Positions 8,980 to 59,500 of a stretch of DNA of 64,000 nt are shown here, piece by piece. Origin of the DNA: a virus (Duplodnaviria; Caudoviricetes); IMG/VR virus record IMGVR_UViG_3300020177_000966; one strand, 5' to 3'. Each line of letters begins with the position of its first letter. Within the stretch, counting starts at the first letter, position 1. The notes under the pieces are model-generated. The model saw only the letters and a program-made list of their open reading frames with translations, ran no database searches and was not told the DNA's origin. The translations under genes and the position numbers were made by a program.

Positions 8980-8984
8980 ATTAA

Positions 8985-10577: not shown

Positions 10578-10582
10578 AATAC

Positions 10583-10588: not shown

Positions 10589-10591
10589 ACC

Positions 10592-10618
10592 AAAAAAATA
10601 CCCGCCGAAGCGGGTATT
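10592..10618 (-). terminator. Rho-independent terminator with C(UUCG)G tetraloop
   Basis: Minus strand AATACCCGC-TTCG-GCGGGTATT followed by TTTTT; lies after ORF 10644-11531. Confidence 0.9.
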
Positions 10619-10643
10619 GAGTTAGTAGTAGTAGAGTTTATTA

Positions 10644-11531: not shown

Positions 11532-11532
11532 A

Positions 11533-12093: not shown

Positions 12094-12110
12094 GTTTCCG
12101 TCCTTATAAA

Positions 12111-12599: not shown

Positions 12600-12628
12600 T
12601 ATATACTCACATTAACTGCTACTATTAT

Positions 12629-13063: not shown

Positions 13064-13067
13064 AACA

Positions 13068-18706: not shown

Positions 18707-18714
18707 TATTTATA
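18707..18714 (-). promoter_or_regulatory. Exact T4 late promoter consensus TATAAATA upstream of the tail sheath gene
   Basis: Minus strand TATAAATA, then a leader with an AGGAG SD. Confidence 0.75.
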
Positions 18715-38307: not shown

Positions 38308-38310
38308 TTA

Positions 38311-40646: not shown

Positions 40647-40653
40647 TTTTATC

Positions 40654-41229: not shown

Positions 41230-41237
41230 AGTCTCTC

Positions 41238-41939: not shown

Positions 41940-42543
41940 GATCGTCTCCGATTAATTTTTCTTTTATAATAAAGTTTGCACTAATTGTAGCACGAACTTT
42001 GTTAGATTTGTTTTCCGAAACGTAATGTTCTAAGTTACTAGGAAAATAGATAATTTCTCCCTCTTTTAAGGGAGGAGTTACCCTATTATTAAATTTAAAA
42101 GGTTCTGAACTTAGCCTAGGAAGTCCAGCTTGGTGAAAATAATCGTATTGATTCTTATAAAATACAAAATTTCCGCTATCTGGCGGAGTGTACATCATGT
42201 ATGCACAACTAATAACACTTTCTCCAGCATGATTATGAATTTCCTGATATTGATTTGAAGAATATCTATTCAACCAGCACTCTACTCTGTATTCTTTTGG
42301 TAGATCTAGATTAAAGATTTCAATATAATCATTTAATCCAATAACTGCTGATTGTATAAACTTTTGCCATGGTAATTTATCTGCTTCTCTATTACCAAAA
42401 GTAGTATCTACATTACTATACCAAGTTGGAATTTTAAAAAAGTGAGAATCATCTTCGAGTACGTCTTTAAAATCTTCTCGAATAGCATCATGGTTAGAAA
42501 GAGATGTTTTATAAACTGGTATAGAAAATAAATTAACATGCAT
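41932..42543 (-). CDS. Putative 2OG-Fe(II) oxygenase (TIGR02466-like)
   Basis: WLNRY, QEIHNH, ISCAYM, EGEIIYFPSNLEHYV, RATISANF. Confidence 0.75.
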   Translation of the reverse strand: MHVNLFSIPVYKTSLSNHDAIREDFKDVLEDDSHFFKIPTWYSNVDTTFGNREADKLPWQKFIQSAVIGLNDYIEIFNLDLPKEYRVECWLNRYSSNQYQEIHNHAGESVISCAYMMYTPPDSGNFVFYKNQYDYFHQAGLPRLSSEPFKFNNRVTPPLKEGEIIYFPSNLEHYVSENKSNKVRATISANFIIKEKLIGDDHG

Positions 42544-44372
42544 CAGTTTTTCATTTCAATTAATTTACCATATTCAGGCAAATAACAATATTCCATTTCG
42601 CTACTATAAAGTGTGCGTACTGCATCGTCTAATGTTTCAACTAAAGGCTCGCCTCCTAAGTTAAAGCTAGTATTAAAGATAATTGGCACACCTGTTTGTT
42701 CGTAAAATTCTTTAATTATTTCATAATAATGTTTATTTTGTTCTTGAGTCACTGTTTGAATACGACAAGTTCCGTCAACGTGAATAATACTTGGAATTTT
42801 TTCAGCAACACCGGGTTGGCAATTCATTGCATACATCATATGAGGCGACTGTTCCAAACCGCGCATATCAAACCATTCATGTGCATGTTCAGCAAGAATA
42901 GTTCCTGCAAATGGGCGGAAATATTCGCGACGCTTAATGCGATTTACATGATCTTTTCCATTTAGGTCTGTTGGATCATATAGAATACTTCTGTTACCGA
43001 GTGCTCTTGGACCATTTTCTGATCGTCCTTGGAACATTGTAACAATTTTTCTGTCTCTAATTAACTCAACTACTTTTTTATTGTCAGCGTCAACAACTAC
43101 AGCACCGTATTTGTTTGCAACTTCTTCAATTTCTTTATCTGAATGACAATAAGGAAATCCTTCATAAATTGTTTCTGTATACGGACGTACTTTTTTATCT
43201 TTAGTAGTTTGATGATAAACTAATAATGCGGCACCAATTGCTGTTCCAGCATCACTACTAACAGGCTCTACATATAAATTAATACCTTCTTTATTTAATT
43301 TGTCAAGATACCAATAATTAGCAACACAATTAAGTGCATAGCCACCACTTAGTACAACATTTTTGTTACCGCTCATTTCAACTGCCTTAAAAATAAGATT
43401 TAAAACTTCTTGCTGTGAACCTTCTTGTACAGCATATGCCATATCTCTACGGTTTTCTAATGTTGTAAGATCAACTCTACTGTTAACTACGTCTTGAGAA
43501 GTTTCAAGATATTCATATTTTCCTTCATTTACTACAGCCGCATTAGGATATGTAGGAATAATTACACTTCTATCACTAGTACGCCATTTGCCGCCATTTC
43601 CATCTGTATAAATTGGAGGAATCTTATCATTAGGTTTGCCATAAGGAGCAAGACCCATTGTTTTGCCAGCTTCAATTGGCTGAAATCCACAATACTGTGT
43701 TACTGCTTCGTAGGCCTTTGTAATACCTGCACTATCATCTAGCACAAGTTCATGGAATCCTTCTTCCCCTTCTCTTTCTGAAGGAATATATTGAACCCTA
43801 GTTCCAGGATAAGGACCGTTTCCGCCCTGATGTTTATATAATGTTTTAATAGCATCAGGATAAGAACAATTAAAAATACTTTCACATTCCCAAGTCATAA
43901 ACTCATCATTAAATGTTCCCGTAGAAATATTCATAGGAATAAAGGTGCCGGCACCGTCAACTACTACTGCAACTGCTGATTCAAAACCACTTCTATAAAA
44001 TGCACATGCCGCATGTAGTTTATGATGTACATAACTCATATCAATTACTTGTCTATGATTATGATGTCCGTCAGGAGTATATGCATTATCTGATCTATCA
44101 ATAAGTCCTAACTTTCTTGCAAGACCAGTATACATGTCTCCACCGCTAAAGTCAATTCTACTTGATTCTTCTAACGGTTGTGTATGAGCAACGACTAGAT
44201 AATCTAATTTATCAGTGTAATCTAAAAACTTAGTCATTGCGGCTAGTGGGCCGCCATCGTATTTTTTACGTGTTAATCTTTCTTCTTCGATAGCAAAAAC
44301 AATTTCACCGTCTTTTAATAAAACTGCGCCACCGTTGTGACCTCTTGTAATTGCTCCAATCCACTGTGTCAT
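42543..44372 (-). CDS. O-carbamoyltransferase (NodU/CmcH/TobZ family)
   Basis: EEERLTRKK, HHKLHAACAFY, VVDGAG, GKTMGLAPYG, SGGYALN, DAGTAIGAA, GPRALGNRSIL, REYFRPFA, NTSFN. Confidence 0.93.
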   Translation of the reverse strand: MTQWIGAITRGHNGGAVLLKDGEIVFAIEEERLTRKKYDGGPLAAMTKFLDYTDKLDYLVVAHTQPLEESSRIDFSGGDMYTGLARKLGLIDRSDNAYTPDGHHNHRQVIDMSYVHHKLHAACAFYRSGFESAVAVVVDGAGTFIPMNISTGTFNDEFMTWECESIFNCSYPDAIKTLYKHQGGNGPYPGTRVQYIPSEREGEEGFHELVLDDSAGITKAYEAVTQYCGFQPIEAGKTMGLAPYGKPNDKIPPIYTDGNGGKWRTSDRSVIIPTYPNAAVVNEGKYEYLETSQDVVNSRVDLTTLENRRDMAYAVQEGSQQEVLNLIFKAVEMSGNKNVVLSGGYALNCVANYWYLDKLNKEGINLYVEPVSSDAGTAIGAALLVYHQTTKDKKVRPYTETIYEGFPYCHSDKEIEEVANKYGAVVVDADNKKVVELIRDRKIVTMFQGRSENGPRALGNRSILYDPTDLNGKDHVNRIKRREYFRPFAGTILAEHAHEWFDMRGLEQSPHMMYAMNCQPGVAEKIPSIIHVDGTCRIQTVTQEQNKHYYEIIKEFYEQTGVPIIFNTSFNLGGEPLVETLDDAVRTLYSSEMEYCYLPEYGKLIEMKN

Positions 44373-45103
44373 ACTTTATTTTCCTTTATAAGTTTTAAAA
44401 CTTTACTTCTATATCTTGCATTTTCAAATGCTTCATAACATTCTGCTAACGGTGTTGGCAAAAATCTCTTTGCTTTAAGATTTTTAAATCCTAAACACTG
44501 CATTACAGGCCCGGTTTTAGATTCAAATAATTTAGCACTATCAAATCTAACTAATCTAACTTTCTCTGTTGTGTTAAATTTAAAGTAACACAACGTATCT
44601 CCTTGTTTTATGTCAAGTTCTCTAACATTTTTTTTAAATTTAAATGCAGGACGTACTGGTCTAATCCAACTTGCTATATTATATGTACCTGCTATACCCA
44701 TTGTGTCTCTTGAAAACTGACTTTCGCTATAATATGGAGGAAGCTGTGTCATTGTTAACGGTTTTTCACTAAAAAATAGAAAACAAGGATGATCTAATTG
44801 ATAAACACCTTCAGGATTTGGCTGTCCAATATAATTCATTAAAAAGTTAGGTTCAACATCATACTTAGAAACTAACTCTTGTCTTTCATAATCTAATTTA
44901 ATATGAAAATCAATAGGACTTTTTGCAGTAAAAGTATTTTTAGTTTCGTCAACAATTGCAGGACATAAACTTGCGCCTAAACCAAAAAATTCTCTAGCAT
45001 TTAAGTCTTTATATACTGTATTAGGTTCGTAGTACTTTAATTCAGATACAAATTCTTGGTTATCTGGTACATTTATAACTGGTGACCAATATACTGTATG
45101 CAT
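44369..45103 (-). CDS. Hypothetical protein (possible beta-barrel/dUTPase-like fold)
   Basis: 244 aa, coupled on both sides; CPAI, IASWIRP, GDTLCYFKF. Confidence 0.5.
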   Translation of the reverse strand: MHTVYWSPVINVPDNQEFVSELKYYEPNTVYKDLNAREFFGLGASLCPAIVDETKNTFTAKSPIDFHIKLDYERQELVSKYDVEPNFLMNYIGQPNPEGVYQLDHPCFLFFSEKPLTMTQLPPYYSESQFSRDTMGIAGTYNIASWIRPVRPAFKFKKNVRELDIKQGDTLCYFKFNTTEKVRLVRFDSAKLFESKTGPVMQCLGFKNLKAKRFLPTPLAECYEAFENARYRSKVLKLIKENKV

Positions 45104-45693
45104 TAATCAAACTCTACTTCGTAAATAAAGTCACAAACAAACGCTTTACGTTCTTGTAAGGTAGGATATACTCCGTGAAATACCTTGCCGTCCATAATAA
45201 TAACATCTCCAGCAATACACTTTACAAGATCGCTTACTAATTCTCCAGTTACTGGATTTTGCGTAATACATTTTAGTTTACCTGCTAAAGGTTTATCGTC
45301 ATGTAAATCTATAGTGTTCAAAAACATTACACTAGTTAATTTTCTTAATGGTAAATGTGTGTGCATTCCGCTATACGTACCTTCAGGATAACGTATCCAC
45401 CAACATTTTTCAAATTCAATACTTTTAAATCTATATGGAGCAAGTGTTTGCTTTATAAAATTAATATATTCTTGTTGCGAATCGACTTGGTATGCATATT
45501 TCATTTCTGGATTGTAACGTAGTATTGCGCCGCCGTGGTCTGTATGTTCTTGCAAACCTAAGTTGTCATCAAATAAAGGTAAAAACTTTTCATAGTTTGC
45601 AAACTTAGATTTTTTAATCCAATAGTCTGCAATTTGTCCTTGTGAACTTAAAAACCAAAAGTCTTTATTGCCTTGATATAACTCTTCTAACAT
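45103..45693 (-). CDS. Putative 2OG-Fe(II) oxygenase
   Basis: YSGMHTH, LTSVMFL, GDVIIMDGKVFHGVYP, RKAFV. Confidence 0.65.
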   Translation of the reverse strand: MLEELYQGNKDFWFLSSQGQIADYWIKKSKFANYEKFLPLFDDNLGLQEHTDHGGAILRYNPEMKYAYQVDSQQEYINFIKQTLAPYRFKSIEFEKCWWIRYPEGTYSGMHTHLPLRKLTSVMFLNTIDLHDDKPLAGKLKCITQNPVTGELVSDLVKCIAGDVIIMDGKVFHGVYPTLQERKAFVCDFIYEVEFD

Positions 45694-46313
45694 ATTGATG
45701 TCTCATAGTCAAAATCGCATACGAATACTTTGCGTTGATTTAACGTAGGATAAGTCCCGTGATATACTCTGCCATCCATAATAACACAATCACCTGCTTT
45801 TGGTACGTGTTGTAAGTAATTAGTTGAATATTCTAAAGGTTGTAGTGTAGTTAAAGATCCTGCTAACGGGTATTCTTGGCTAGTTTGAGTATTTGTTAAA
45901 AACAAAACTGCTGTTAATTGCTTGCCTGGAGTGTGACAATGTAATCCACTGTATGCTCCGGGTGCATAATCTACTCCCCACGCCTTTTTAAATTTGTTAA
46001 CTTTAATAGGTAATTCTGCACAACAAATTTTAATAAATCTATGAAAGTCCAATGTTGGATCTAAATCAATTGGATACGCCATATCTGTTTTATAGTGTAA
46101 ATATCCGTTACCATAATCTTTATGACTGTTGTCGTATACACCTTCTTCAAATAACGGTAAAAACTTTTTCCAAGTAGGATAATGATTACCTGTAATTACC
46201 CATGTTTCTAAAGTCTGTGCGGCAGCGATTTGCGGACGAAAGCTACTATCAAACAAATCATTAAGAAACGCTTCTGGGGAAGATTTATCTAATCTGCTTG
46301 GACTATCTGACAT
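45687..46313 (-). CDS. Putative 2OG-Fe(II) oxygenase (paralogue of 45103-45693)
   Basis: YSGLHCH, LTAVLFL, GDCVIMDGRVYHGTYP, RKVFV. Confidence 0.65.
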   Translation of the reverse strand: MSDSPSRLDKSSPEAFLNDLFDSSFRPQIAAAQTLETWVITGNHYPTWKKFLPLFEEGVYDNSHKDYGNGYLHYKTDMAYPIDLDPTLDFHRFIKICCAELPIKVNKFKKAWGVDYAPGAYSGLHCHTPGKQLTAVLFLTNTQTSQEYPLAGSLTTLQPLEYSTNYLQHVPKAGDCVIMDGRVYHGTYPTLNQRKVFVCDFDYETSIC

Positions 46314-47353
46314 TACTGGCCAGTCCTTCCTAAAATTTGAGCTGGTTGTTTATTAGAGTGTACTACTCCATGAGTTGGACACACATCTCCTTGTTCTTGT
46401 GGAATATAATCTCCTGAATAACTTCTCGGTTTACCTAATCGTTTGCGTACACTAGTAATAATTGCTTTAAAGTTATCGTCGTCTAGTTCCATAACTTCAT
46501 CATTAAATCGTTCAATTTCCTCTTCCATTGTAAGTCTAATAGGACTAAACTTACGTTTTCCTTCACCTAGATCAATAATATCAAAATCTGGCGAATTTGG
46601 ATATGAAATATTAATAGGATATGTACTTCCAATAACACTGGTGCATGTTGTACCTAATGCCTTTGCCATATGTTGTCCCAAACTATCACAACCAATAAAA
46701 TGATCAGCAATTTGAATAATACTTGACCAAACTCTTACATCTGGAATTTGTGGAACAGCAATAGGTACAGTTGGATTCTCTTCAATTTTAATAGGAAATT
46801 CACTCATTATAATTACAGCATAATCTTCACGTAATTCTTTAACAATTCTAACTACGTCATTTAAGTGAAAACTTCTTGATGTTCCGTCAACAATAAAGTC
46901 TCCCATATTTTCTGCTGTGCGGCCAAAGGGCTGAAACACTACTACTTTGTCTTTTCCTGTAACAGCCTTTACTTCTTCAACTACTTTATATCCTTGAACT
47001 AGTTCGTGTTTATTCATATAAATTTTTGGATCGCCTACTTCTCGCAATCCTTTATTATTAATTGCAATATCAAATGCTTGTGCTAAACTACATTTTTGAT
47101 TATAATATTCCCATACTCTGTATGGTTCAGGTGTAATACAATCTCTATCTTTGATATAGTCTCTAAATAAATTTTTATGCCAATGGTCATACGCTAGTTC
47201 GTGTAGATGTGGATGTCCTTTATAAAAGTCCATTCCTCCTTCACAAACAATAATAAAGTCTTGATCTTCTTCGTATAGTTTTTCAAATGCAGGAATTGAA
47301 CAAACAACTCTACCTGCACCACCGTTCATAAAATATGCTTTTTTTCGTGACAA
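46313..47353 (-). CDS. GT-B glycosyltransferase, GT9 (ADP-heptose transferase)-like
   Basis: N-terminal NGGAGR, VVVFQPFG, ADHFIGCDSLGQHMAKALG. TTG start with an AGGAG SD; TAAATA at 47378-47383. Confidence 0.7.
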   Translation of the reverse strand: MSRKKAYFMNGGAGRVVCSIPAFEKLYEEDQDFIIVCEGGMDFYKGHPHLHELAYDHWHKNLFRDYIKDRDCITPEPYRVWEYYNQKCSLAQAFDIAINNKGLREVGDPKIYMNKHELVQGYKVVEEVKAVTGKDKVVVFQPFGRTAENMGDFIVDGTSRSFHLNDVVRIVKELREDYAVIIMSEFPIKIEENPTVPIAVPQIPDVRVWSSIIQIADHFIGCDSLGQHMAKALGTTCTSVIGSTYPINISYPNSPDFDIIDLGEGKRKFSPIRLTMEEEIERFNDEVMELDDDNFKAIITSVRKRLGKPRSYSGDYIPQEQGDVCPTHGVVHSNKQPAQILGRTGQ

Positions 47354-47418: not shown

Positions 47419-47447
47419 AAAAAAACCCCTGCATTGCAAGGGTTTTT
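47419..47447. terminator. Probable bidirectional rho-independent terminator
   Basis: AAAAAAACCCCTGCATTGCAAGGGTTTTT, a stem with A and T tracts on either side; separates the fibre operon from the GT9 operon. Confidence 0.75.
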
Positions 47448-47468: not shown

Positions 47469-48257
47469 TTATTTTTTGCCAGCTACTTTTTGTGCCGCTA
47501 CTTTAACATCAATAGCATATGCGCCATCTCTGTATGGATCATTAGGATCAGATGCTTCTTCCGGATCTCTCATATCCTTAGGCATATTAGGAAACATCAT
47601 AACTGCTTGCCAAGGTTCAAATCCTCTACCTTGAAGTAATGCAGGAAGATCACGCAATTTTTGTCTAAAATCTAACCATGCAGTTTGAATTGATTCTGGT
47701 GCGTCTGTTTGACCTACTTTAGCATCTGTTTCATGTAACATTTGATCACGTAAGTCTCTAACTTGTTGCCATGTTAGGTCCATCTTAGAACCTGTTGCGG
47801 CCCAATCTCTTACACCAAGATTAAATGTTTCTGTTTCAAAGTTATATGTAATGTCAGCATCGTTATACACATCACGTGGCTCTAACTCTAATGTATGTTC
47901 TACATCAGGAAATCCATCTGGTGCGTCCCATAATACTTCCCACTCTCTTGCACGTCTAAACTCAATTAAGTCTTCACGTCCACAATCATTACCAATTTCA
48001 CACAATAGTGGATTTTCTTTGCAATCAACTGTTACTCTTGTAATGTCTTGGGCCGCTGGTCTTTCTAAGTCTCTTTTTAACCATAAGCACCATCCTGATT
48101 CTTTACCGTAATCCTCTGATGATGTATCATTATTAACTTCGAAAGTTAAGAATTCAGGACCGACATATGTAAACGTTCCGGTCTTACCTTGTGTAAAACT
48201 ATTCTTTCTCCATTCGTCCCACACTGGGTATGTAAATTCTTTTCTAATTGTTCTCAT
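47469..48257 (-). CDS. Tail fibre assembly chaperone-like protein
   Basis: C-terminal WQQVRDLRDQMLHETD...WLDFRQKLRDLP...FP; directly downstream of the Cys-rich genes; TAAATA at 48277-48282. Confidence 0.75.
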   Translation of the reverse strand: MRTIRKEFTYPVWDEWRKNSFTQGKTGTFTYVGPEFLTFEVNNDTSSEDYGKESGWCLWLKRDLERPAAQDITRVTVDCKENPLLCEIGNDCGREDLIEFRRAREWEVLWDAPDGFPDVEHTLELEPRDVYNDADITYNFETETFNLGVRDWAATGSKMDLTWQQVRDLRDQMLHETDAKVGQTDAPESIQTAWLDFRQKLRDLPALLQGRGFEPWQAVMMFPNMPKDMRDPEEASDPNDPYRDGAYAIDVKVAAQKVAGKK

Positions 48258-48290
48258 TTTATATAACTCCTAAAAGTATTTATCATTGTT

Positions 48291-49127
48291 TTACATAAAT
48301 GTTATTCTAACAACACCTGATCCGCCTTGGCCTGATCCACCTGCACAACATTTTGCCCAGTTATTACAGTACGAGCTTACACCAGCTTGTCCGCCGCCTG
48401 CTGGCCAGTCAATGTGACAACCACATGAGCACCATGCTTCATTAGTTACACCTACTTGCATTTTACCAAATAAAGGTGCTGATCCTGAGAATGAATAAGT
48501 GTACACACAGTGACAGTAACCATGTCCTGGTTCTGTTCCTGATGTACCCATCATTCCAAAGTCTGCTCCAAATATACCACAAACGTTACAGTTAGAACAT
48601 GTATGTGAGTGTCTTGGTCCCCAAGCATCTCCATTACACATCCATCCTCCGCAACCACCTGTTGTACAAAAATTACTTAAATTGTGTCCGTTAACATATG
48701 ACTTACATCCCATACCTGCTGTACAAGTATGTGATTTACCACAAGGCCAACTACCGCCCGCACATACTGTGTACTGACATCCTGGACTTGTACTTACTGT
48801 TTTAGAAGCGTAATTGCCTCCGGCGCCGCCGATTGTAAACATACAATAGTTACAGCATGTGCTACCTGGGCCGCCACCGCCGCCTGACCAAATTTCAAAT
48901 GTTACAGTTGATGCTCCGTCTGGAACGCACCAATAACAACATTTGCCGTTTGCTTGCTCACAACATCCACTTTGTCTAGCACAACTATGGCATGCCATTC
49001 CGCGCTCATTGTATATCCACTGCACTCCCATGTTATTGCCGTTTCCGTGAGCAATATCTGAGTTTTGCACTGCACTATTAACAATACTGTCTGTATTAAC
49101 TTTTTTATAACTTGCGTATGTAGCCAT
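48291..49127 (-). CDS. Cys/Gly-rich putative tail-tip adhesin, paralogue C
   Basis: 29 Cys in 278 aa (counted); FEIWSGGGGG, GGAGGNY and GQGGSGVVRITF Gly-rich fibre motifs. Confidence 0.6.
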   Translation of the reverse strand: MATYASYKKVNTDSIVNSAVQNSDIAHGNGNNMGVQWIYNERGMACHSCARQSGCCEQANGKCCYWCVPDGASTVTFEIWSGGGGGPGSTCCNYCMFTIGGAGGNYASKTVSTSPGCQYTVCAGGSWPCGKSHTCTAGMGCKSYVNGHNLSNFCTTGGCGGWMCNGDAWGPRHSHTCSNCNVCGIFGADFGMMGTSGTEPGHGYCHCVYTYSFSGSAPLFGKMQVGVTNEAWCSCGCHIDWPAGGGQAGVSSYCNNWAKCCAGGSGQGGSGVVRITFM

Positions 49128-49139
49128 TAATTTCTTTCC

Positions 49140-49976
49140 TTATGCATATGTTACTCTTACTAAGCCCGATCCGCCCATATTTCCACCGGCACAACATTTT
49201 GCCCAGTTACCGCAATAACTAGATTGAGCTGTTTGGCCACCGCCTGCTGGCCAGTTAGTATAACATGCACAATTACACCATGCTTCTGCGTTTGATCCTG
49301 CAAACATTTTTCCTACAAATGGAGCAACACCTGTTTGTCCCCAGTCGCCTGATTTACACTGACATCCGCCATGTCCGCCTGACACTCCTGTTGATCCCAT
49401 AATTCCAAAATCTGCTCCAAATATACCACAAACGTTACAGTTAGCACATGTTTGTGTATGACGTGGACCCCAAGCATCTCCATTACACATCCAGCCCGGA
49501 CAACCACCTGTTGTACAAAAGTTACTTAAATTATGTCCGTTAACATATGATTTACAACCCATGCCAGCCGTACAAGTATGTGACTTAGAACACGGCCATG
49601 TTCCTCCAGCACAAATTGTGTACTGACATCCAGGGCATGTACTAATTGATCTTACAGCATAGTTGCCGCCTGAGCCACCTGCTGAATGCATACAATAGTT
49701 ACAGCATGTGCTACCAGCACCTGCGCCACCACCTGACCAAATTTCAAATACTACTTTTGATGCGCCCGAAGGTACAGACCAATAGCAACATTTACCATTT
49801 GCTTGTTCGCAACAATCACCGGCATCAGCACAGTGTTGGCATGCCATGCCGCGTTCGTTAAATACCCAAAAAGTATGGTACTTATTTCCTGCTCCTGGAC
49901 CTAATTTTTCTGCGCCGACACTATTATCTTGGAAGTTGTCTGTTGTTAGTGTTTTATAACTTGCGTATGTAGCCAT
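49140..49976 (-). CDS. Cys/Gly-rich putative tail-tip adhesin, paralogue B
   Basis: 29 Cys in 278 aa; FEIWSGGGAG, GGSGLVRVTY. Confidence 0.6.
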   Translation of the reverse strand: MATYASYKTLTTDNFQDNSVGAEKLGPGAGNKYHTFWVFNERGMACQHCADAGDCCEQANGKCCYWSVPSGASKVVFEIWSGGGAGAGSTCCNYCMHSAGGSGGNYAVRSISTCPGCQYTICAGGTWPCSKSHTCTAGMGCKSYVNGHNLSNFCTTGGCPGWMCNGDAWGPRHTQTCANCNVCGIFGADFGIMGSTGVSGGHGGCQCKSGDWGQTGVAPFVGKMFAGSNAEAWCNCACYTNWPAGGGQTAQSSYCGNWAKCCAGGNMGGSGLVRVTYA

Positions 49977-49988
49977 TATTCTTTTTCC

Positions 49989-50828
49989 TTACACATAAGT
50001 AATCTTTACAATTCCTGATCCGCCTTGGCCTGATCCACCTGCACAACATTTTGCCCAGTTATCACAATAACTAGATGTTCCAGGAGTTCCGCCACCTGCA
50101 GGCCAATTAATATGACATCCGCAAGCACACCATGCTTCGTTAGTTGCTGTTGCTACGTGCATTCCAATACCTGCGGCAGCACCTGACCAACTTGTTTGTC
50201 CATGACATCTACAAGTAGTAGTACCTGCTTTAATACCAGCAGTACCGGTAAATCCAAAGTCTGATCCAAAAATTCCGCAAATGTTACAGTTACCACAACT
50301 TGTTACAGCATGTCGCTGACCCCAAGCATCGCCATTACACATCCAGCCGCCACAGCCGCCGTCTGTACAAAAATTACTTAAATTATGTCCGTTAACATAT
50401 GATTTACAACCCATACCTGCTGTACATGTGTGTGATTTGCCACAAGGCCAACTACCACCTGCACAGACACTATATTGGCATCCTGGATTAGTGTCAATTG
50501 TTTTAATTGCGTAGTTTCCGCCGAAGCCACCAATAGCAAACGAACAGTTATTACAACAAGTATGTCCTGGGCCTCCGCCGCCACCGGACCAAATTTCAAA
50601 GGTTACTTTATAAACATTATTTGGAACACACCAATAACAGCATTTTCCGTTTGCTTGCTCACAACATCCACTTTCTCTAGCACACTGGTGGCAACGCATG
50701 CCACGTTCGTTATAGATCCATTGAACTTTTCGACAAGCCCCTGCACCGGGAGCTAACTTGTCCCTTGTAATAACTCCAGCTGGAATTCCTTCTGATGTTA
50801 TCTTTTTGTAACTTGCATAACTTGCCAT
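49989..50828 (-). CDS. Cys/Gly-rich putative tail-tip adhesin, paralogue A
   Basis: 30 Cys in 279 aa; FEIWSGGGGG, GGSGIVKITY. Confidence 0.6.
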   Translation of the reverse strand: MASYASYKKITSEGIPAGVITRDKLAPGAGACRKVQWIYNERGMRCHQCARESGCCEQANGKCCYWCVPNNVYKVTFEIWSGGGGGPGHTCCNNCSFAIGGFGGNYAIKTIDTNPGCQYSVCAGGSWPCGKSHTCTAGMGCKSYVNGHNLSNFCTDGGCGGWMCNGDAWGQRHAVTSCGNCNICGIFGSDFGFTGTAGIKAGTTTCRCHGQTSWSGAAAGIGMHVATATNEAWCACGCHINWPAGGGTPGTSSYCDNWAKCCAGGSGQGGSGIVKITYV

Positions 50829-50849: not shown

Positions 50850-51299
50850 TTATACAGTGTAAATACGCCAGCCGTATGTGTCGCCTGAAAATACCACTTC
50901 AAATGCCGCTCCTTCGGAGTTTACAGTCAAATCAGCCGCATCACCTTGAATTAATTTTCCGTTTCTACCAAGTGTTAGTGCATTGCTGTCAAATGTTTTT
51001 CTTAAATCAAAAAATCTAACAACATCGCCTACTGCCGGTGATCCTGGTAACGTAATCGTAAATGGTCCGCCGTTGGTATCACAGAACAATTGTTGTCCTG
51101 ATGCCGCGTTATACGCTGTTGTAACTGTAGTAGCGTTAAGAACACCTACTGGAAGCCATGCTGTACCGTTATACAATTCTAAGTTATTCAACTCAGTATT
51201 GAAACGGATTGAACCTGCTCCTGCATCTTGTGTTCTCTGTGCCGTAGTTCCGAAAGGAATTGTTAGACCTGGTGAACCTACTGAAATTCTTCTACCCAT
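50850..51299 (-). CDS. Small tail fibre protein (gp34 N-terminal-like repeat)
   Basis: IPFGTTAQR...GSIRFNTELNNLELYNGTAW fibre motif, then DTNGGPFTITLPGSPAVGDVVRFFD. Confidence 0.7.
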   Translation of the reverse strand: MGRRISVGSPGLTIPFGTTAQRTQDAGAGSIRFNTELNNLELYNGTAWLPVGVLNATTVTTAYNAASGQQLFCDTNGGPFTITLPGSPAVGDVVRFFDLRKTFDSNALTLGRNGKLIQGDAADLTVNSEGAAFEVVFSGDTYGWRIYTV

Positions 51300-51314: not shown

Positions 51315-51641
51315 TTACGCCGCTGGTACGGCTGTTTCAATTCCCATTACTACTGCATTGCAGTTAGCGCCGGATGATCTTGTAACAAGCAATTTGCCTG
51401 TGTCCAATACAATACCTGTTCTTTCAAGAACGCCGTTTGGTCCGATTGATGTATCATATTCTAGATACTCACCGCCACCTGGTGTTGCACTGGTTGCTAC
51501 TGCTAATCTTATTTGAACTGTGCTTGAACTTCTATTACAAAAAGAAACAGTCACAACGCTATAAGTATCGGCAGGAACAGTATACGTTGTTGTATCCGTA
51601 TTTGCTGTAAGATCACTAATTCCTAAAATTCCTGATGCCAT
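51315..51641 (-). CDS. Small virion structural protein
   Basis: YTVPA...CNRS...IRLA motif; similar to 61878-62207; TAAATA at 51664-51669. Confidence 0.6.
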   Translation of the reverse strand: MASGILGISDLTANTDTTTYTVPADTYSVVTVSFCNRSSSTVQIRLAVATSATPGGGEYLEYDTSIGPNGVLERTGIVLDTGKLLVTRSSGANCNAVVMGIETAVPAA

Positions 51642-51673: not shown

Positions 51674-54600
51674 TTAAGTTTTACTTGTCAAGTAGTACGC
51701 TAATGCAACTGGGCTACCACTTATTCCACCATTGAAATTCATCCCGGTAGTTACAGTGATTGGACTATTATCAGTTGTACTTATTGTATTACCTGTAATA
51801 TTTATTTTACCTGCTGTAACCGCGTTAACGTTCAGAGAACTACTTCCTCCACCAATTTGTGCATTGATGTATGTAATAATTGCTCTTTGTGTTGGAACAA
51901 CATTATCTGAATTAGCACTAAATGTACCATCTGTACTAAATTCATTAATAACTGCTCCGCCCTGTCCTAAGCCTACTGCTCCTAGTGACAATTCTTGTAG
52001 ACCTGCTAAACTGAATGCACTGGTATTCAAACTTGCAGATCCTGTTGACTGTTCAACGTTAAACAAACGTCCAACTCGGAAGTTACCATCTTGGTCTGTA
52101 CTTGTGTAGAACACTCGTCCGCCGCCTTGTTCTGTAACTTCGTCTTTTGGATCATTTGCATAAACTGGTGTTCCTGGATAGTTAGTACTTGATATGTTAC
52201 CTGTACCAATATCTAAGAAATCATGTCCTGTTAGACGTACTTGAGAGTATCTTCTTCTAATTGTAATGTTAGTGCCATGCTCTGGAGCAAGTTCAACTCC
52301 TAAGTCTGGACTTACTTGTAGGTTTGCAGTATAGTTTCCTGGGTTACCTAAAAGTTCTCTAACAAATACAACTTTAAAGTATCTACTATCGCCTTCAATT
52401 TGTAAGTTTGCACCTTCAGTTGGAATCTCAGTTAAACCATACACATTCATAAAGTTAGCTGATTGGTAAATGTCTCCATAACCGTCGCCGTCAACTGTTG
52501 CGCCTGCTGTTTCAAAATCAATTCCTCGTTCAGTCCATGTAGGTTGTGCTAATACACCGTTACCTACTCTAATTTCATATGGTGCTTCAGAAGTTTCATT
52601 AGGATCAGTAATTGTCAACTTTAACGTTGGGTCTGATGAACTATATCCGCTTCCTGGATTTACAATATAGAACTGTGAGATTCTATTATCTGCAACTTGT
52701 GCTCTAACTTGTGCTCCAGTGCCGCCACCGCCAATTACTACTACTCTTGGTTCAATAGTGTATGCTGTTGTAGCATCTAATGTTGAAGCAATTGCATTTG
52801 TTGGATGCCAAGTATCCCATCCTGGTGTACCGTCTGAATCTTTAACAATGTTAGCAACTTTAGTACCTGAGTTATATGATGTAATAACACCGTATTGTCC
52901 AGAACCAACTCCAGCTGTAATAACAATTCTCATACCAATGTATTTGGTGTTATTTGCTGTTTCAGTGTTTGACAAAGTAATAGTAGTTAGGCCGCCTGCC
53001 TGCGCTGTGTTTGAGCTAGTTTCATAACCTCTACCGCCAAGTGAATCAACGTCATTTAACAATCCGTCGTTATTAACATCACTTACGTTATATGTTGATC
53101 CGTCGTCTGGGTTACGGCCTCTAACTTCAAAGATGCCGCCATTAACTACATTAGAACTAGCAACTACTGCACCGTATCCATTACCGCTAATTTGATAAGT
53201 TGCAGATGTATAATTATTACCTGCGTTTGTATACTCAAAATGGATAATCTTACTACCGTCAGTTAACGCTCGACCAATTTGTGCTTCAAGTTTTCTATTA
53301 TTAACTCCGCCAGTTGTTGGAATTTCAGTTACGTCAATAAACTCTGATACTGCGCCTTTGTCACCATACGAACAGTTGCCGTTTGTTCCACGAATCTTGC
53401 CGCCATTCTCTGCTAGATAACCAATATGATTATAATAACAGAATACTGATACAAGTTCTGCACGACCTAAGTTAGTAACCCATGCACCAATACCATCACT
53501 TAGTACTTGTGTATAATCGTTAGCAACAATAGAATCATTACCACCGTTGTGCAAATTACCGTCAACTTTAATACCAATACATGCTGTTCCAAAGTTAGTA
53601 ACACCTTGTACATATGGTGAACGTGTTGTAATCCATACACGATCATCATCTGGTCCCCAACCTGGATCAAGTGAAGTATAAGCGCCTGCACTTGGACGCT
53701 TAGATCCGTATGCATTTGCCGCACTCAATGTGCCATTTAGTCCACCTAGTGTTTGGTTTCTAATACCTGTACCATCTCTTAGTAAGTACATATTTTCTAA
53801 AGTAGAACCGTTTACACTATTGCCATAAAATAATCCTGCCATTAGTGTAGCATAGTTGCTACCTTCACTTACACCGTGAATTAAATCGTAAATAAATGCA
53901 TCAATATAATGCTTTACATCCTTTTCACAAGCTACAGTATCAAAAGAATATGCTGGATAGTTTACTTCAATATATTTTGTTACATCACGTGCAATAAAAT
54001 CTTTATTAAGCATTAATAATCTAGCTGCCGCAAATTTATCTTGATCGTCAACTCTTTCGTTTCTTCCTCTAAACGCAGGAGCAGATGAATCACCACTTGC
54101 ACCATTAATCTCATAATCAATTTTGTCATATAGCTCTTGTGCTAAATCTGACAATATAGTTCCTACTGCTGAAGTACTAAGCGGATTGCTATCATTTTGA
54201 GAAACTGCGTTACCTGTTTGAGGAGTAACAGTTGTACCTTCAACAATATCACTAAGTATACTCTTCATATGTAGCACACCTGCTAAACTATATGTTGCAT
54301 CGCCAGCGGCTGTTACTGAACCTGCTGGTTCAACTCTAGTTGAACGTAATTCGTCTCCAACAATTGCAGTTAATGCAGGTACTCTAATTGGAAGTACTTC
54401 TGCATATGTTCCTGTTTTAACAAAAATTACAGCATGTGATTTTACTTGTGTAGGTAATGTATATCCTCCACCAAGTGTAATTGAGTTAGTAACTATTCCA
54501 ATCGCCGATGTAATATTTGCTAATACTCCTGCTTCTGGTGTTTTTGTAGAATCTTTAATTTGAAGATACCTATCGCCTGCCGCAACTCCATCTAAGTCTT

Positions 54601-56527
54601 GGTAGTCTGCAGGAGGTGTTGCACTATTGATAACATCTTCAACTAAGTCAATAACAAAATTAAGAGCCGCAACGTTTTGTGTTTCTGATCCAGTATCAAA
54701 CCAATCAGTACCATCATTATCTTTCATTGCTTGCGCAACTCTGCGAATATTTACGTTGCCACCTTTTCTTAAATCAATAGTAACAGCATCAACAACAAAT
54801 CCTGCTAGTCTTTGAAACTTAGCTTCGTCAAAACTAAATCCAATAAAGAATGGAGCAGTTTGTGTAATAATTTGTCTCTTAGCCCATTTAGCAGTTTCGT
54901 ATGCAATGAAAGTTCTGTTTATTTCTAACAAGTAAACTGCGTTTGGATTTTTTGGTCCTTTTTCAACTTCTTCTGCCGCATAACGAATTGTTTTCCAAGG
55001 ACGATCTAATGTCCCACCATTTGTTGGATAAGGATTGTTTATTCCGTTAGTAGCAACATAGTATACATCAGGTGTAGTAGCAAAATCTTTCCATTCTGGT
55101 AAACCTTGTGTACTTACACTTAGCACTTGTCCTTCAGAACCAATTGGTAATCTAGCTGGGCCTGAACCACTGTAGTAAAGGATGTCACCTTCTGTTGTTA
55201 GCGCACTTTCTTCAGCGCCACTTGCAACGTTTTTCCAATATGTTCCTAGCGAATCTGCTGACGGTTTATTACCAGCGGCAGATGTATGTGCTAGAATACA
55301 AATATAACTAATTAATCCTTCGCGTACTGCGTCGCCCGCATCGTATAATGTAGCATCTGTCCAAGTATCTTTCCATTCAATACCTTGAGACAATCTTGCC
55401 CAGTATGTAGCGTTTGGTGGACGGAAGCCTTGGTGGTCTGCAATACATAGATATGTATATCCACCTAATCTTACAACATCGCCAATTCTGTAATCTTGGT
55501 TAGTAGAATCATCACTCCACTCGCCTTTAAGATTAAAGCCTGTTGTAACTAAATCCCATTTTGAACTGCTCGCCGGAACTTCTGCAAAAACGTTATCATT
55601 AGCAACATATTGGTTACCACCGTAGGTTACGAAGTCGCCTGGTTGATATCTTTCATATCCTGACCATGAGTTTTCAAATTCCATACCTGGAACAAATTTG
55701 TCCCAATTAGCAATGTCAGCTTGTAGTGTACCTAGCTGTGAATCTGGATTTGTAGTAACAGAAGTATGTGATCCTGTTGCAATGTAAAGTGTAGCACCCC
55801 AAAGAACAACATCATTAACTTTATAGCGTGTTGAGTTAGTCCACTCACCTTTATAATCAAAACCTTTATTTAGATAGTCCCATTTATTTTGATCGTCTTC
55901 TAGTCCTAAAGCCTCTGTAGAAGCAGATGTATGACCTGTATTTGCAATGTATAAAGTTCCGCCGTATTTAACAATGTCGTTAACTTTATAGCGTGTTGCT
56001 ACAGCCCAATTTTGCTTCCAGTCTTGGCCTTCTGAGAAAATATCCCATTTTAAAATGTCAGCTTCTAGTCCTAAAGCATTTGTGGCCGCGGCAGTGTGAC
56101 CAGTGTTACACAAATAAATGTTTCCACCATATTTTACCAAGTCGTTTGCTTTGTAAACTGTAGAAGCTGTCCAATTGTCTTTCCAGTCAATTGAGGTAGC
56201 AAACTGATCCCATTTTGATTGATCATCTTCAAGTACAGCTTGTGCTGTATGACCGGTATTACAAATGTAAATAATACCACCATATCTTACGATATCGTTA
56301 ATTTTGTAGAATGTAGTTGTTGTCCAGTCTGACTTCCAGTCAGTACCGTCACTAAACTTATTCCAGTGATCTTCGTCATTGTAGAAATTAGCACTTGCAG
56401 TATGACCTTGTACTGCTACATAGGTTCTACCACCATATCTAATAACATCGTCTTTTAGATATGTAGTGCCAGTTACCCATGCATCTTTCCATATAAATCT
56501 AATTCTACCGAGTTTAAATTCTGCCAT
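51674..56527 (-). CDS. Large virion structural/fibre protein (1617 aa) with N-terminal Trp-rich CBM5/12-like repeats
   Basis: MAEFKLGRIRF start, eight repeats, YYVATNG...PWKTIRYA, C-terminal YSQVRLTGHDFLDIGTGN; TAAATA at 56555-56560. Confidence 0.75.
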   Translation of the reverse strand: MAEFKLGRIRFIWKDAWVTGTTYLKDDVIRYGGRTYVAVQGHTASANFYNDEDHWNKFSDGTDWKSDWTTTTFYKINDIVRYGGIIYICNTGHTAQAVLEDDQSKWDQFATSIDWKDNWTASTVYKANDLVKYGGNIYLCNTGHTAAATNALGLEADILKWDIFSEGQDWKQNWAVATRYKVNDIVKYGGTLYIANTGHTSASTEALGLEDDQNKWDYLNKGFDYKGEWTNSTRYKVNDVVLWGATLYIATGSHTSVTTNPDSQLGTLQADIANWDKFVPGMEFENSWSGYERYQPGDFVTYGGNQYVANDNVFAEVPASSSKWDLVTTGFNLKGEWSDDSTNQDYRIGDVVRLGGYTYLCIADHQGFRPPNATYWARLSQGIEWKDTWTDATLYDAGDAVREGLISYICILAHTSAAGNKPSADSLGTYWKNVASGAEESALTTEGDILYYSGSGPARLPIGSEGQVLSVSTQGLPEWKDFATTPDVYYVATNGINNPYPTNGGTLDRPWKTIRYAAEEVEKGPKNPNAVYLLEINRTFIAYETAKWAKRQIITQTAPFFIGFSFDEAKFQRLAGFVVDAVTIDLRKGGNVNIRRVAQAMKDNDGTDWFDTGSETQNVAALNFVIDLVEDVINSATPPADYQDLDGVAAGDRYLQIKDSTKTPEAGVLANITSAIGIVTNSITLGGGYTLPTQVKSHAVIFVKTGTYAEVLPIRVPALTAIVGDELRSTRVEPAGSVTAAGDATYSLAGVLHMKSILSDIVEGTTVTPQTGNAVSQNDSNPLSTSAVGTILSDLAQELYDKIDYEINGASGDSSAPAFRGRNERVDDQDKFAAARLLMLNKDFIARDVTKYIEVNYPAYSFDTVACEKDVKHYIDAFIYDLIHGVSEGSNYATLMAGLFYGNSVNGSTLENMYLLRDGTGIRNQTLGGLNGTLSAANAYGSKRPSAGAYTSLDPGWGPDDDRVWITTRSPYVQGVTNFGTACIGIKVDGNLHNGGNDSIVANDYTQVLSDGIGAWVTNLGRAELVSVFCYYNHIGYLAENGGKIRGTNGNCSYGDKGAVSEFIDVTEIPTTGGVNNRKLEAQIGRALTDGSKIIHFEYTNAGNNYTSATYQISGNGYGAVVASSNVVNGGIFEVRGRNPDDGSTYNVSDVNNDGLLNDVDSLGGRGYETSSNTAQAGGLTTITLSNTETANNTKYIGMRIVITAGVGSGQYGVITSYNSGTKVANIVKDSDGTPGWDTWHPTNAIASTLDATTAYTIEPRVVVIGGGGTGAQVRAQVADNRISQFYIVNPGSGYSSSDPTLKLTITDPNETSEAPYEIRVGNGVLAQPTWTERGIDFETAGATVDGDGYGDIYQSANFMNVYGLTEIPTEGANLQIEGDSRYFKVVFVRELLGNPGNYTANLQVSPDLGVELAPEHGTNITIRRRYSQVRLTGHDFLDIGTGNISSTNYPGTPVYANDPKDEVTEQGGGRVFYTSTDQDGNFRVGRLFNVEQSTGSASLNTSAFSLAGLQELSLGAVGLGQGGAVINEFSTDGTFSANSDNVVPTQRAIITYINAQIGGGSSSLNVNAVTAGKINITGNTISTTDNSPITVTTGMNFNGGISGSPVALAYYLTSKT
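55240..56494 (-). repeat. Eight ~50-aa W-x3-W-x4-Y-x3-D-x-V-x-YGG-x2-Y repeats (approximate bounds)
   Basis: For example WKSDWTTTTFYKINDIVRYGGIIYICNTGHT and WKQNWAVATRYKVNDIVKYGGTLYIANTGHT. Confidence 0.85.
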
Positions 56528-56563: not shown

Positions 56564-59500
56564 TTATCCGTTAAAGTCGTCTCGATCAATTCGAGCTCCT
56601 AGAAACATCGTTAAGGCTTGCAACCCGCCGCCTAATGGACCGTTAATAATCATTTGTGGCGCTACTGTTGCCATAGCTTCTGGATTATTTGATCCTGCTG
56701 TGTTGGACCATGTTCTATCTTCAAACTTTAACTGACCTGCTACAAGTGTGTTAGTAAACAAGTTAGATCCACCACCGTTAAATCTATTTTCGATATACGA
56801 TGTTAATGCTCGTTGTGTTGGAATAATATTATCCGAGTTCGCAACAAACGTATTATCTGTACTAAATTCTCTAATTACAGCCTGTGTTCCACCAACTCTA
56901 ATTCCGCCTAGTCTTAGTTCATCTAAACCTTCTAAGTCAAAGAAGTCAGCATTTAGTGTAACGCCGCCCTGTGCCTGTGAAACTCTAAACAATTCACCAA
57001 CTCTATAGTTACCATCTTGGTCACTACTAGTATAAAATACTCGTCCACCGTTTGACTCAACAACTTCGTTTGATTGTACTGTGTCATTTGCGGCTGTTTG
57101 TCCTTGCACGTAAAGCGAAGGATAATTAGTATCTGCAAAGTTACCTGTACCGATGTCTAAGAAATCGTGTCCTGTTAGACGTACTTGTGAATATCTTTCA
57201 CGAATGGTTGCTACAGTATTATGTACTGGTGCTGTTGATCTAGATAATACTGGACTAATTTGGAACGTAATTTGTTTGTTAGGAGCAACACCAGATTCTG
57301 ATGTTACTTTTACTAGTCTATAAACTATTGGATTACCTGCAAATCTTACGTTTGCTCCTGGTCCAGGAGTTACGCCTACACCACTAACAATCATTGTGTT
57401 ACCGATTTGTAATTCTTCACCAAAACCGTCACCTGTAATTGTAACAATAGCACTTTGATATCCTGTTCCTCTATTGTAGAATGCAGGTTGTGGAAGTACT
57501 CCGTCGTTAATATCAACAGTAAAATATGGTTCACTATATTCTTCAGGATCTTCAATTGTTACTGTTGGTGCAGTTACATAGCCTGAACCTGGATCGTAAA
57601 TTTTAATTAGGCTTAATTTTCCGTTTGCAACTTCTGCACGAGCAAATGCTGTTCTACCGCCTGTGTAAACGTTTCCTGTTCCTATTGTTTCACTAATAGC
57701 AACGAATGTAGGCAAACTATTTCTTACGCCGCCTGCGACACTTGTCATTGCACCGTTTGCAGTTCTAATAGTCCAATTTTGAGCATCTTCAGAACTAGCA
57801 GTTGTACCTGTATCGCTTAATGCTAAAAATACACCATTTGAGTATCCTACAGTCCAATCTTCTCTTCCTGAGTCGCCAACAATTTGTGCATCATTCCAAA
57901 CAGTTCCAGTATCACTATGAATAACTCTATCCGAATTGTCCATAGTTGCAACCCAACAATTGTTACCATATACTAAACCGCTATATAGTTCAATACCGTC
58001 TGTTGATACGGCTGCACCTGTTGTCCAGTTTGCACCGTTATCTGTTGATATTACAGTTGAACCATCTTGTGCTAGTGCAATCCATTTACCTGCTCCATAT
58101 GCTAAACCTACCCAAGTAGTATTACTTGCGCCAGTTACGTTGGTAGACCATCCTGCGCCAGGAACAGTAGTTGATCCTGCATCTTGTACAATAGAATTTA
58201 CATATGCATTACCGTCACCTGTAGCAATACAAATAATTGTATCATTATCTGGACCGCCGACTGCTACTTTTTTCCAAGTTGTTGCAGAAGGTAGTGTCGA
58301 ATGATCAAAGTTAATTCCATCATTTGAAAATACTAATTTATCTGATGCATCTGCTAAGCCTAATAGTAAAGGCCCTGATTTTGAAAAAGAAGTATAACTT
58401 AAATTATATGCTGGAATCGACCTTTGAGTCCAAACTGATGCATCTGATGAAACATACCAATCATCGCCACCTGTTGGAGCATAATACCATAAACCTAATT
58501 CTTCACTGTAACCGATATCGTGTCCGCCTGTTTGTATACTATTGTTAGTTTTATTAAATGTAGGAGAACTAATAGTTACTCTTGGTTCATATTCATATTT
58601 TGTAGTTGCAGTAAACGAGGTTACATTAATTTTTCCAGGAACAATATTATCCCATCCTGGAGTTCCAGTACTTTCTTTAAACACTGTTGCTACTTTTGTA
58701 TCTGGGTTGTAACCGTCAATATATCCATATTGACCTGCACCTGGACCGTCAGTTAATAAAATTCTCATTCCTACTAGCTGTGCCGCTGTTCTAACTTCTG
58801 ATGCCGCTAAAGTAATACTACTTAAATCTCCACCTTGAGAGTTATTAGTAAAAGTTTTAAATCCAGCGCCACCAACAGTTGTACTATCATCTGGAATAGC
58901 TAAATCAATTCTAGACACTGCACTAACTCTAATTTCGTCATATTTCATATTAAGGTCAGTACCGGTTGCCTGTGTTGTACTTGCTACTGCACCTGTATAT
59001 GATTGTCCAGTGTTTTTATAAGCTAGTGCTAAAATGTTTGATCCGTTTGTGAATACTTCATCGACACTTGCTTCACCGTTTTGGTTATTTACAGAAACAG
59101 TCTGTGGTGTTTCATTATTATCAAATCCTTCAGCAACACTACCAAATGTACCGTATGAATTGTTACCATTAGTTGCACGTAAAATTCCGCCATTTTCTGA
59201 CAAATATCCAATATGTGCATAATATGTAAACACACTAACTAGTTCTGAACGACCTAGATTAGTTGCCCAATATCCAATGCCATCACTTAGTACTTGCGTA
59301 AAGTCGTTAGCAACAATTGATTTGTTTCCGCCATTATGTAATGAACCATCAACTTTTAATCCGACACATCCTGTTCCAATAGCAGTAACACCTTGTATGT
59401 AGGTTGATTTATTTGTTACCCACACACTCGAATCATCTGGACCTGTGCCCGGATCTAGCGATACATATGCGCCAGCAGTCGGACGACTTGTTCCAAAATC

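Follow-up and report, generated by a model that had tools for sequence, protein, structure and literature searches.

When a protein devotes about a tenth of its residues to cysteine and has to be put together in a reducing cytoplasm, the question arises of when and how its cysteine network forms and, in the locus described here, of what such a protein does for a phage. The 64,000-nucleotide stretch analyzed in this study (hereafter, the window; from the IMG/VR virus record IMGVR_UViG_3300020177_000966, Caudoviricetes) carries three such genes in tandem on its minus strand, which are transcribed in the order p1 (49989..50828; 279 amino acids [aa], 30 Cys), p2 (49140..49976; 278 aa, 29 Cys), and p3 (48291..49127; 278 aa, 29 Cys). 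An initial annotation of this DNA had described three tandem open reading frames (ORFs) of 278 to 279 aa with 29 to 30 cysteines each; the ORFs lie exactly where it placed them, and every cysteine motif that it quoted was recovered in our alignment. We propose that the trio encodes the subunits of a distal, host-recognizing fiber protein in a T4-like marine cyanophage, a reading that as a whole we hold to be somewhat better than an even bet.

The three products stand apart from everything else in the window, with 10.4 to 10.8% Cys and 18 to 19% Gly, compared to a median of 1.1% Cys among the window ORFs and 2.9% for the runner-up after the trio (ORFs of at least 150 aa). They are 68 to 71% identical to each other and share 28 invariant Cys columns. 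The motifs are C46xxC49-x5-C55C56-EQANGK-C63C64, C91C92NxC95, C177xxC180xxC183, W232CxCxC237, and W257AKCC261. The first nine residues are nearly identical in p1, p2, and p3, and the paralogues diverge most at residues 192 to 230 and 10 to 36. Residues 192 to 230 are also where the family as a whole varies most, and the hypervariable segment singled out by the initial annotation (residues ~198 to 213) falls within this block. The ratio of nonsynonymous to synonymous substitution rates (dN/dS) is 0.05 to 0.27 in each gene, denoting purifying selection, and rises to 2 to 4 times the core value in residues 192 to 230; no positive selection was detected, the region-wide dN/dS remaining below 0.3 even within the variable block. 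With 291 homologues at an E value of ≤1e-3, these low dN/dS values, and 25 Cys columns that are at least 90% conserved, the trio consists of real genes. The 12-nt spacers between the genes suggest translational coupling; a ribosome-binding motif was not directly seen at these spacers.

The fold was approached through an AlphaFold2 (AF2) monomer model of p3, based on an alignment of 69 sequences and of moderate confidence (predicted local distance difference test [pLDDT], 71; predicted template modeling score [pTM], 0.72). Its best structural match is the fiber protein gp24 of the cyanophage Pam3 (7ypx_A; Z of 16.2, root mean square deviation of 3.2 Å, 191 aa), followed by the tail tip of the mycobacteriophage Bxb1 (Z of 10.5 to 11) and the glycine-rich domains of ALK/LTK (PDB 7NX3, 7LS0, 7LIR; Z of 7 to 9.4); unrelated structures start at a Z of ≤4.9 in a wide PDB search combined with the realigned Foldseek top 1000. 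Matches in BFVD and AFDB are annotated as "glycine-rich domain-containing," collagen-like fiber, tail-fiber, or minor-tail proteins; these predicted structures come from phages and giant viruses, and many of the matches lie at the ends of collagen-like or tail-fiber proteins. The p3 model contains the TG supradomain, i.e., a TNF-like beta-sandwich joined to a lattice domain rich in glycine. By this model, the trio adopts the TNF-like plus polyglycine fold known from viral fiber tips, not specifically that of gp38, and the glycine-rich fiber-tip scaffold of the initial annotation is borne out by the matches to Pam3 gp24 and to other glycine-rich tip domains. The N terminus is modeled as two 3-residue helical turns with a pLDDT of 40 to 59; only some 30 residues stand ahead of the TNF-like domain, and the structural alignment begins at model residue 27 versus gp24 residue 74, so that nothing like the long N-terminal helical bundle of gp24 is seen in the p3 model. 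The segments of lowest confidence (residues 135 to 139, 166 to 171, and 177 to 182) contain or adjoin Cys motifs.

Pam3 gp24 is thus the closest known system. [quoted passage not shown] Like the trio proteins, gp24 is a short fiber protein of ~280 aa from a cyanomyovirus. It is a trimer, and its assembly needs the adjacent Tfa-like chaperone gp25, with which it forms a 3:3 complex (PMC9608196); a Tfa-type chaperone gene directly downstream of the fiber gene is also found here. The differences are nevertheless substantial: gp24 and the trio share 18% sequence identity, without a sequence-level match, and Pam3 has a single gene, a homotrimer, and a long N-terminal bundle docking on the baseplate wedge, whereas the locus studied here has three paralogues with ~30 N-terminal residues and ~29 Cys per chain. 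Moreover, the disulfides reported for the gp24 fiber use a single cysteine (Cys28), which links the fiber to the wedge, and the trimer is established for gp24 and predicted for the trio. ALK and LTK share the fold but, as ectodomains of animal receptor kinases, are monomeric and bind cytokines.

The initial annotation had also seen a likeness to T2-type gp38 adhesins, a reasonable pointer of which only part holds. The glycine-rich domains are comparable, the Pam3 authors themselves having likened that of gp24 to the S16 gp38 adhesin (PMC9942802), and conserved glycine-rich motifs alternate with variable segments in the T2/S16 adhesins as in the trio. However, the nearest structures are Pam3 gp24 and ALK, and gp38, tried as the nearest known fold, is not among the listed matches of either structure search, although absence from such a list does not amount to exclusion. 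In addition, gp38 has no TNF-like domain, is a single protein capping the gp37 trimer, and is not Cys-rich (see also PMC9942802). Located at the distal fiber end, gp38 binds the receptor, a location and role proposed for the trio.

The chaperone gene, at 47469..48257 on the minus strand, directly follows p3 and encodes a 262-aa Tfa-type tail-fiber assembly protein, with a PF16778 (Phage_tail_APC) match of 27.9 bits over residues 164 to 206 (cutoff, 26.6) and PHROG tail-fiber-assembly matches. A chaperone gene with its own PF16778 match occupies the same position, after the triplet or the single homologue, in three distant loci (L076, L081, and L082), and a similar-sized unannotated gene is found at this position in the phages S-SSM7, Sf-FS3, and S-CAM3, the S-CAM3 protein having been inspected at its N terminus only. 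An intrinsic-terminator hairpin with a U-run, read directly from the sequence, lies just beyond, at 47421..47447 on the minus strand (RNA fold of −15.2 kcal/mol, z of −3.2). Because of this terminator, the trio and the chaperone gene close one transcription unit, to which the fiber genes also belong, and the operon of tailoring enzymes that follows opens another.

The number of copies is constant. Exactly three tandem copies were counted in 51 of 51 related IMG/VR loci with complete flanks, and the 167.5-kb record from which the window was taken holds only these three. Three copies in the same slot are found in S-SSM7, S-SSM6a, and Sf-FS3, at only 38 to 40% identity, and three again in S-CAM1 and S-CAM3; in the latter, gp158, gp157, and gp156 (329, 302, and 300 aa; 36, 35, and 24 Cys) are only 27 to 40% identical to each other. 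Among metagenomic loci, the distant L081 carries a run of three Cys-rich Gly_rich_2 genes with a chaperone gene behind them, and L082 has two tandem cassettes, each in the order A, B, chaperone-like, C, chaperone. Since A1/A2, B1/B2, and C1/C2 are 48 to 57% identical, the whole cassette was duplicated as a unit and its A-B-C composition kept. In this same locus (L082 1335-8710; Logan contig ERR10509552_136842), each cassette also encodes a 204-/219-aa protein whose C-terminal part resembles the short 78-/91-aa chaperone, and a cassette may thus contain a pair of chaperone-like genes.

When 44 distinct triplets were placed in one tree, p1, p2, and p3 of the main group fell into separate, position-specific clades (support of 0.998, 0.982, and 0.73, respectively). 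Within the window, identical tracts of 25 to 49 nt, identical at synonymous sites as well, are shared between differing pairs of paralogues in a mosaic pattern (48316 to 50414). These mosaic tracts, together with a clustering by phage lineage at depth, suggest at the sequence level that gene conversion has acted among copies always kept at three.

A complex model of p1+p2+p3 scored 0.63 against 0.24 for the best control; 58 of 80 solved complexes attained this mark, as did 2 of 110 mismatched pairs. With a 23-row alignment per chain, the three runs shared at least 85% of contacts, and the partner pLDDT was at least 68. The modeled interface comprises residues 9 to 48, 71 to 76, 108 to 110, 185 to 227, and 273 to 279: the N-terminal strand of each chain (~31 to 37) packs on residues 71 to 76, 108 to 110, and 273 to 279 of its neighbor, residues 216 to 227 from the three chains come together at the axis, and much of the variable block 192 to 230 lies in or near the seams. 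The model supports a trimer, with the reservation that the pass may mirror no more than a likeness to the solved Pam3 gp24 trimer.

Altogether, we propose the following arrangement. Each subunit would consist of a docking segment of ~30 N-terminal residues, a TNF-like beta-sandwich, and a glycine-rich domain of polyglycine-II type, and the chaperone encoded directly downstream would probably aid folding and trimerization, as in Pam3. One p1, one p2, and one p3 would most likely form a single 1:1:1 heterotrimer, whose apex and intersubunit seams would bear the variable residues 192 to 230 as an asymmetric receptor-binding surface. The ~29 Cys per chain, lying outside the modeled interfaces, would most likely act as staples that rigidify the glycine-rich lattice in oxic seawater, disulfides being somewhat likelier than metal-thiolate sites. 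The fullest version of this proposal, namely, an obligate heterotrimeric receptor-binding fiber made of three coevolving paralogues, with an asymmetric tip of three hypervariable loops and ~88 Cys per trimer as an intrachain disulfide/thiolate network that forms in, or survives, cytoplasmic assembly, falls in our estimation slightly short of an even chance.

Among 69 homologues of 57 to 85% identity, the 25 well-conserved Cys columns include 14 that are invariant, in agreement with the conserved framework described by the initial annotation; the poor conservation that this annotation had named as part of a refutation is thus not seen. At identities of ≤38%, the S-SSM7 and S-CAM3 lineages still have 24 to 36 Cys per protein, and the 90 full-length representatives from an exhaustive profile search contain 6 to 12% Cys, save two off-family proteins (P0210 and P0254). 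As judged from these sequences, the high Cys load goes back to the ancestor and has been selected for. The positions are partly reshuffled between lineages with the total held; the S-SSM7 group, for instance, has a remodeled CxxCxxC motif and a remodeled N-terminal Cys cluster. In the close family, Cys 205 and Cys 254 covary (225 proteins with both, 0/0 with one only, and 11 with neither), and Cys 117 is swapped for Cys 148 (0 with both, 207/25 with one only, and 4 with neither), as would be expected of bond partners or of ligands of one site. Coupled pairs or quartets were also sought across distant relatives and given up, the alignment there being too unreliable; clean signals came from the close family only. 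None of the 29 Cys of p3 is in the confident interface list, which places the network within each chain in the model.

The trio matches phrog_4205 (p1, E value of 4.6e-33), a PHROG annotated as of unknown function. Pfam and NCBIfam returned nothing for p1 to p3, a PDB search by sequence (single protein and family profile) gave no meaningful match, a megablast search with the region gave none in a set of 50,697 phage records, from which near copies may be missing, a six-frame scan of the whole record did not find PF21722, and no paper on the trio family or on PF21722 was found in the literature. The link to PF21722 (Gly_rich_2; gathering score, 24.3 bits) runs through relatives: a precomputed PF21722.5 match exists for 32 of 120 close homologues, P0041, which is 65% identical to p3, scores 27.3 bits over profile positions 7 to 224, and the distant Cys-rich relatives P0145 and P0168 reach 28.2 and 42.2 bits, above the gathering score. 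These relatives pass the cutoff over nearly the whole profile, whereas the trio itself lies below detection with PF21722.4. Judged in this way, the trio belongs to a larger Cys-rich clade that bridges to Gly_rich_2 through its relatives; we know of no described Cys-rich triple-gene subfamily of the Gly_rich_2/TG fold. Close homologues of the trio (P0041, P0043, and locus L055) are carried on contigs of 262 to 375 kb, and CheckV rates the completeness of the 167.5-kb record (167,518 bases) at only 46%; for these two reasons, the carrier may be an unusually large (jumbo) cyanomyovirus.

The trio lies within a fiber module whose minus-strand order is two giant CBM5/12 fiber genes, two small fiber-related genes, p1 to p3, the chaperone gene, and the terminator. 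Directly upstream of p1, 50850..51299 (minus strand) encodes a 149-aa protein with PHROG matches to N- and C-terminal parts of tail, tail-spike, and fiber proteins, whose syntenic counterpart in Sf-FS3 is annotated as "major tropism determinant N-terminal domain." It is preceded by a 108-aa fiber-related protein (51315..51641, minus strand; phrog_11338 tail fiber protein, E value of 4.4e-10), the N terminus of which is similar to S-CAM3 gp160 and to proteins encoded ahead of the cassettes in distant loci. Farther upstream in the same orientation, 51674..56527 encodes a 1,617-aa tail-fiber protein with seven CBM5/12 repeats (Pfam CBM_5_12, E value of 2.2e-39; phrog_9851 tail fiber protein, E value of 1e-218), a possible shaft for the trio. 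It is adjacent to a paralogous giant of 1,642 aa (56564-61492), both on the minus strand and with 6 to 7 CBM5/12 repeats near the N terminus. As for transcription signals, the T4 late promoter TATAAATA occurs as one exact copy in the 64 kb (18707-18714), with none near the trio. A GATAAATA motif that differs by one base from the core TATAAATA lies at 48277-48284 (minus strand), after the stop codon of p3 and before the chaperone gene's ribosome-binding site. A consensus scan for sigma-70 promoters and terminators gave fewer hits than the shuffled expectation and missed the terminator later read directly at 47421-47447.

Beyond the terminator, the tailoring operon encodes a glycosyltransferase family 9 (GT9)-like protein, 2-oxoglutarate (2OG) oxygenases, a carbamoyltransferase, a halogenase, and a haloacid dehalogenase (HAD) phosphatase. 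Its first gene (46313..47353, minus strand) encodes the 346-aa GT9-like (heptosyltransferase-like) protein, which has weak NCBIfam heptosyltransferase matches only. The N-terminal motif FxNGGxGRVxxxIPAxEK of this protein is also present in S-CAM3 gp154 and in the L082 gene at 8774-9700, and each of these GT9-like genes adjoins a carbamoyltransferase gene. GT9-like and carbamoyltransferase genes lie beside the triplet and chaperone in distant cyanophages as well as here (window 37744-47353, minus strand; L077, i.e., S-CAM3, 8591-13180; L082 8774-10819). S-SSM7 and Sf-FS3 carry carbamoyltransferase and oxygenase genes by the trio, and S-CAM3 adds genes for ADP-heptose synthase and phosphoheptose isomerase. 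The GT9-like gene is thus, at the level of gene order, a conserved neighbor of the trio, and any action of its product on the trio is putative; virion fibers and host lipopolysaccharide are both candidate targets for glycosylation or carbamoylation by these enzymes. The halogenase gene inside the operon (39168-40646, minus strand) encodes a full-length flavin-dependent tryptophan halogenase (Pfam E value of 2.8e-91).

How firmly does the proposed heterotrimer stand? Several findings weigh against it, some bearing on the trimer and others on the cysteines or the virion location. At depth in the tree, paralogues group by phage lineage and not by position, which requires gene conversion or repeated triplication. 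Single-copy relatives with longer N termini and a chaperone gene next to them exist (e.g., P0122, 477 aa), so the fold itself needs no three paralogues, and p1 to p3 do not match PF21722.4 even at an E value of ≤10. Trimerization of Pam3 gp24 rests mainly on the long N-terminal helical bundle (PMC9608196), which the trio does not have. The complex model passed in the presence of a solved Pam3 gp24 trimer and may only reflect this likeness; with paralogues ~70% identical, it cannot separate a heterotrimer from homotrimers, and one control, in which another protein took the place of chain 1, still gave 0.24. Mutual information between paralogues, comparing the modeled donor residues 28 to 37 with the acceptor strands, was not above background. 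These points leave room for three separate homotrimeric fibers or tips, each Pam3-like, with differing receptor specificities or docking sites, as Pam3 gp24 and most phage fibers are homotrimers (PMC9608196), divergence at residues 192 to 230 and 10 to 36 is as expected of alternative specificities or anchors, and the complex model would probably pass for homotrimers too. We nevertheless regard this arrangement as unlikely, if a serious contender, because alternative receptor-binding proteins usually vary in number and the copy number here is constant in all 51 loci and five isolate lineages, because L082 duplicated the whole A-B-C set and not single genes, because the first nine residues common to all paralogues point to one docking site, and because the window and the isolates examined have one chaperone gene per set (against the two chaperone-like genes per cassette of L082). 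The same invariant copy number, unit duplication, shared N terminus, and single chaperone gene make the case for the heterotrimer, which probably forms the fiber tip, at odds that we put slightly on the favorable side of even. Thus, of the two outcomes offered by the initial annotation, the heterotrimer gains support from the constant three copies, the duplication of the triplet as a unit, and the passing complex model, and three alternative host specificities become less favored in view of the constant copy number and common first nine residues.

The cysteine chemistry is also open to more than one account. Cys counts show no even preference (128 even versus 108 odd proteins; 20 even versus 24 odd triplet sums), which means that not all cysteines are in intrachain or intratrimer disulfides and that some are free, metal bound, or linked to other proteins; in addition, a search for genes of Erv1/ALR thiol oxidase, DsbA, and thioredoxin came up empty in the record, only 46% complete. 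Both observations suit a fiber protein whose cysteines mainly coordinate metal (a Zn, Fe, or Cu thiolate) gained in the reducing cytoplasm, as do cytoplasmic folding without a signal peptide, the CxxC, CC, CxC, and CxxCxxC spacings, and the low-confidence model segments at Cys motifs, which could arise from a missing cofactor. Bound Fe or Zn is known from T4 gp37, gp12, and spike tips, which counts on the same side. Against metal as the main role speak the lack of any Pfam or NCBIfam match of the trio to metal-binding families (zinc ribbon, ferredoxin-type Fe-S, metallothionein), the lack of a conserved His partner (H133 is Glu or Arg in the S-SSM7 group), and the remodeling of Cys clusters in the S-SSM7 group with the total kept, which is rare for conserved metal sites; dozens of metal ions per fiber would also be costly for hosts in the metal-poor surface ocean. 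We consider this version of the fiber rather unlikely. The snow-flea antifreeze protein and the beetle beta-helix antifreeze proteins are disulfide stapled. These parallels and the disulfides contained in Pam3 virions (PMC9942802) make us lean to structural disulfide staples; for the chemistry as such, disulfides come near an even chance and metal remains doubtful, mixed or other solutions taking up the rest. A different role for the cysteines would follow if the trio were the substrate of the neighboring enzymes (GT9-like protein, 2OG-Fe(II) oxygenases, carbamoyltransferase, halogenase), with Cys, Gly, or other residues modified or cross-linked. The recurrence of GT9-like and carbamoyltransferase genes by the trio in the window, S-CAM3, and L082, of carbamoyltransferase and oxygenase genes in S-SSM7 and Sf-FS3, and of ADP-heptose synthesis genes in S-CAM3 is in its favor, but the terminator parts the two transcription units, such cyanomyovirus gene sets are usually read as lipopolysaccharide (LPS) or sugar genes (PMC3037559), none of the enzyme classes there is known to act on Cys, and a folded 278-aa fiber domain is unlike the precursor of a ribosomally synthesized and posttranslationally modified peptide (RiPP), all of which makes the substrate role improbable. 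Finally, since no virion proteome or structure for any carrier phage, including S-SSM7-like phages, was found in the literature, we infer the virion location from the fold and the synteny. That the trio would instead be an intracellular or released Cys-rich protein, e.g., for metal or redox buffering during infection, is suggested solely by its extreme Cys content and is most improbable, given the fiber-tip fold, the position of the genes within a fiber and baseplate module and before a fiber-assembly chaperone gene, and the complex model supporting a trimer.

For the preferred reading, a heterotrimeric fiber tip, a precedent exists in the virophage DSLV2, in which three consecutive paralogous fiber genes encode proteins that copurify as a 1:1:1 heterotrimer (PMC12724248). 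As in the main group of the trio family, the DSLV2 tripartite tail proteins form position-specific clades, and they have links to Synechococcus phage fibers and to LPS binding. They differ in having a T4 gp37-tip-like fold with the collar domain PF07484 (the trio gave no PF07484 match, and its fold is not that of the gp37 tip), in their size of 196 to 247 aa, in being neither Cys- nor Gly-rich, in having no described chaperone gene, and in belonging to a virophage and not to a tailed phage. In animals, the A, B, and C chains of C1q provide TNF-like heads from three tandem paralogous genes, which form a 1:1:1 asymmetric recognition head on a collagen stalk; the C1q heads match the p3 model at a Z of only about 3.2 to 3.5. 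The fold and the pairing of fiber and chaperone are already known. Within the libraries and papers searched, what is new is a large Cys-rich branch of the TG fold in cyanomyoviruses, the obligate set of three paralogues plus a chaperone, and a short N terminus in place of the Pam3 docking bundle.

Our study bears on the means by which cyanophages choose their hosts, since the range of marine Synechococcus and Prochlorococcus strains open to infection by a cyanophage is set by its fiber tips. Few receptor-binding proteins of T4-like cyanophages have been identified, and the trio family, which has been conserved in several genera of Kyanoviridae and is plentiful in metagenomes from the ocean, provides a concrete candidate, with isolates carrying the triplet at hand (S-SSM7, S-CAM1, S-CAM3, and Sf-FS3). 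To our knowledge, the fibers of tailed phages are homotrimers. If the heterotrimer holds true, the trio would break this rule and would show a route to asymmetric binding sites, the only heterotrimeric example reported so far being that of a virophage, with another fold.

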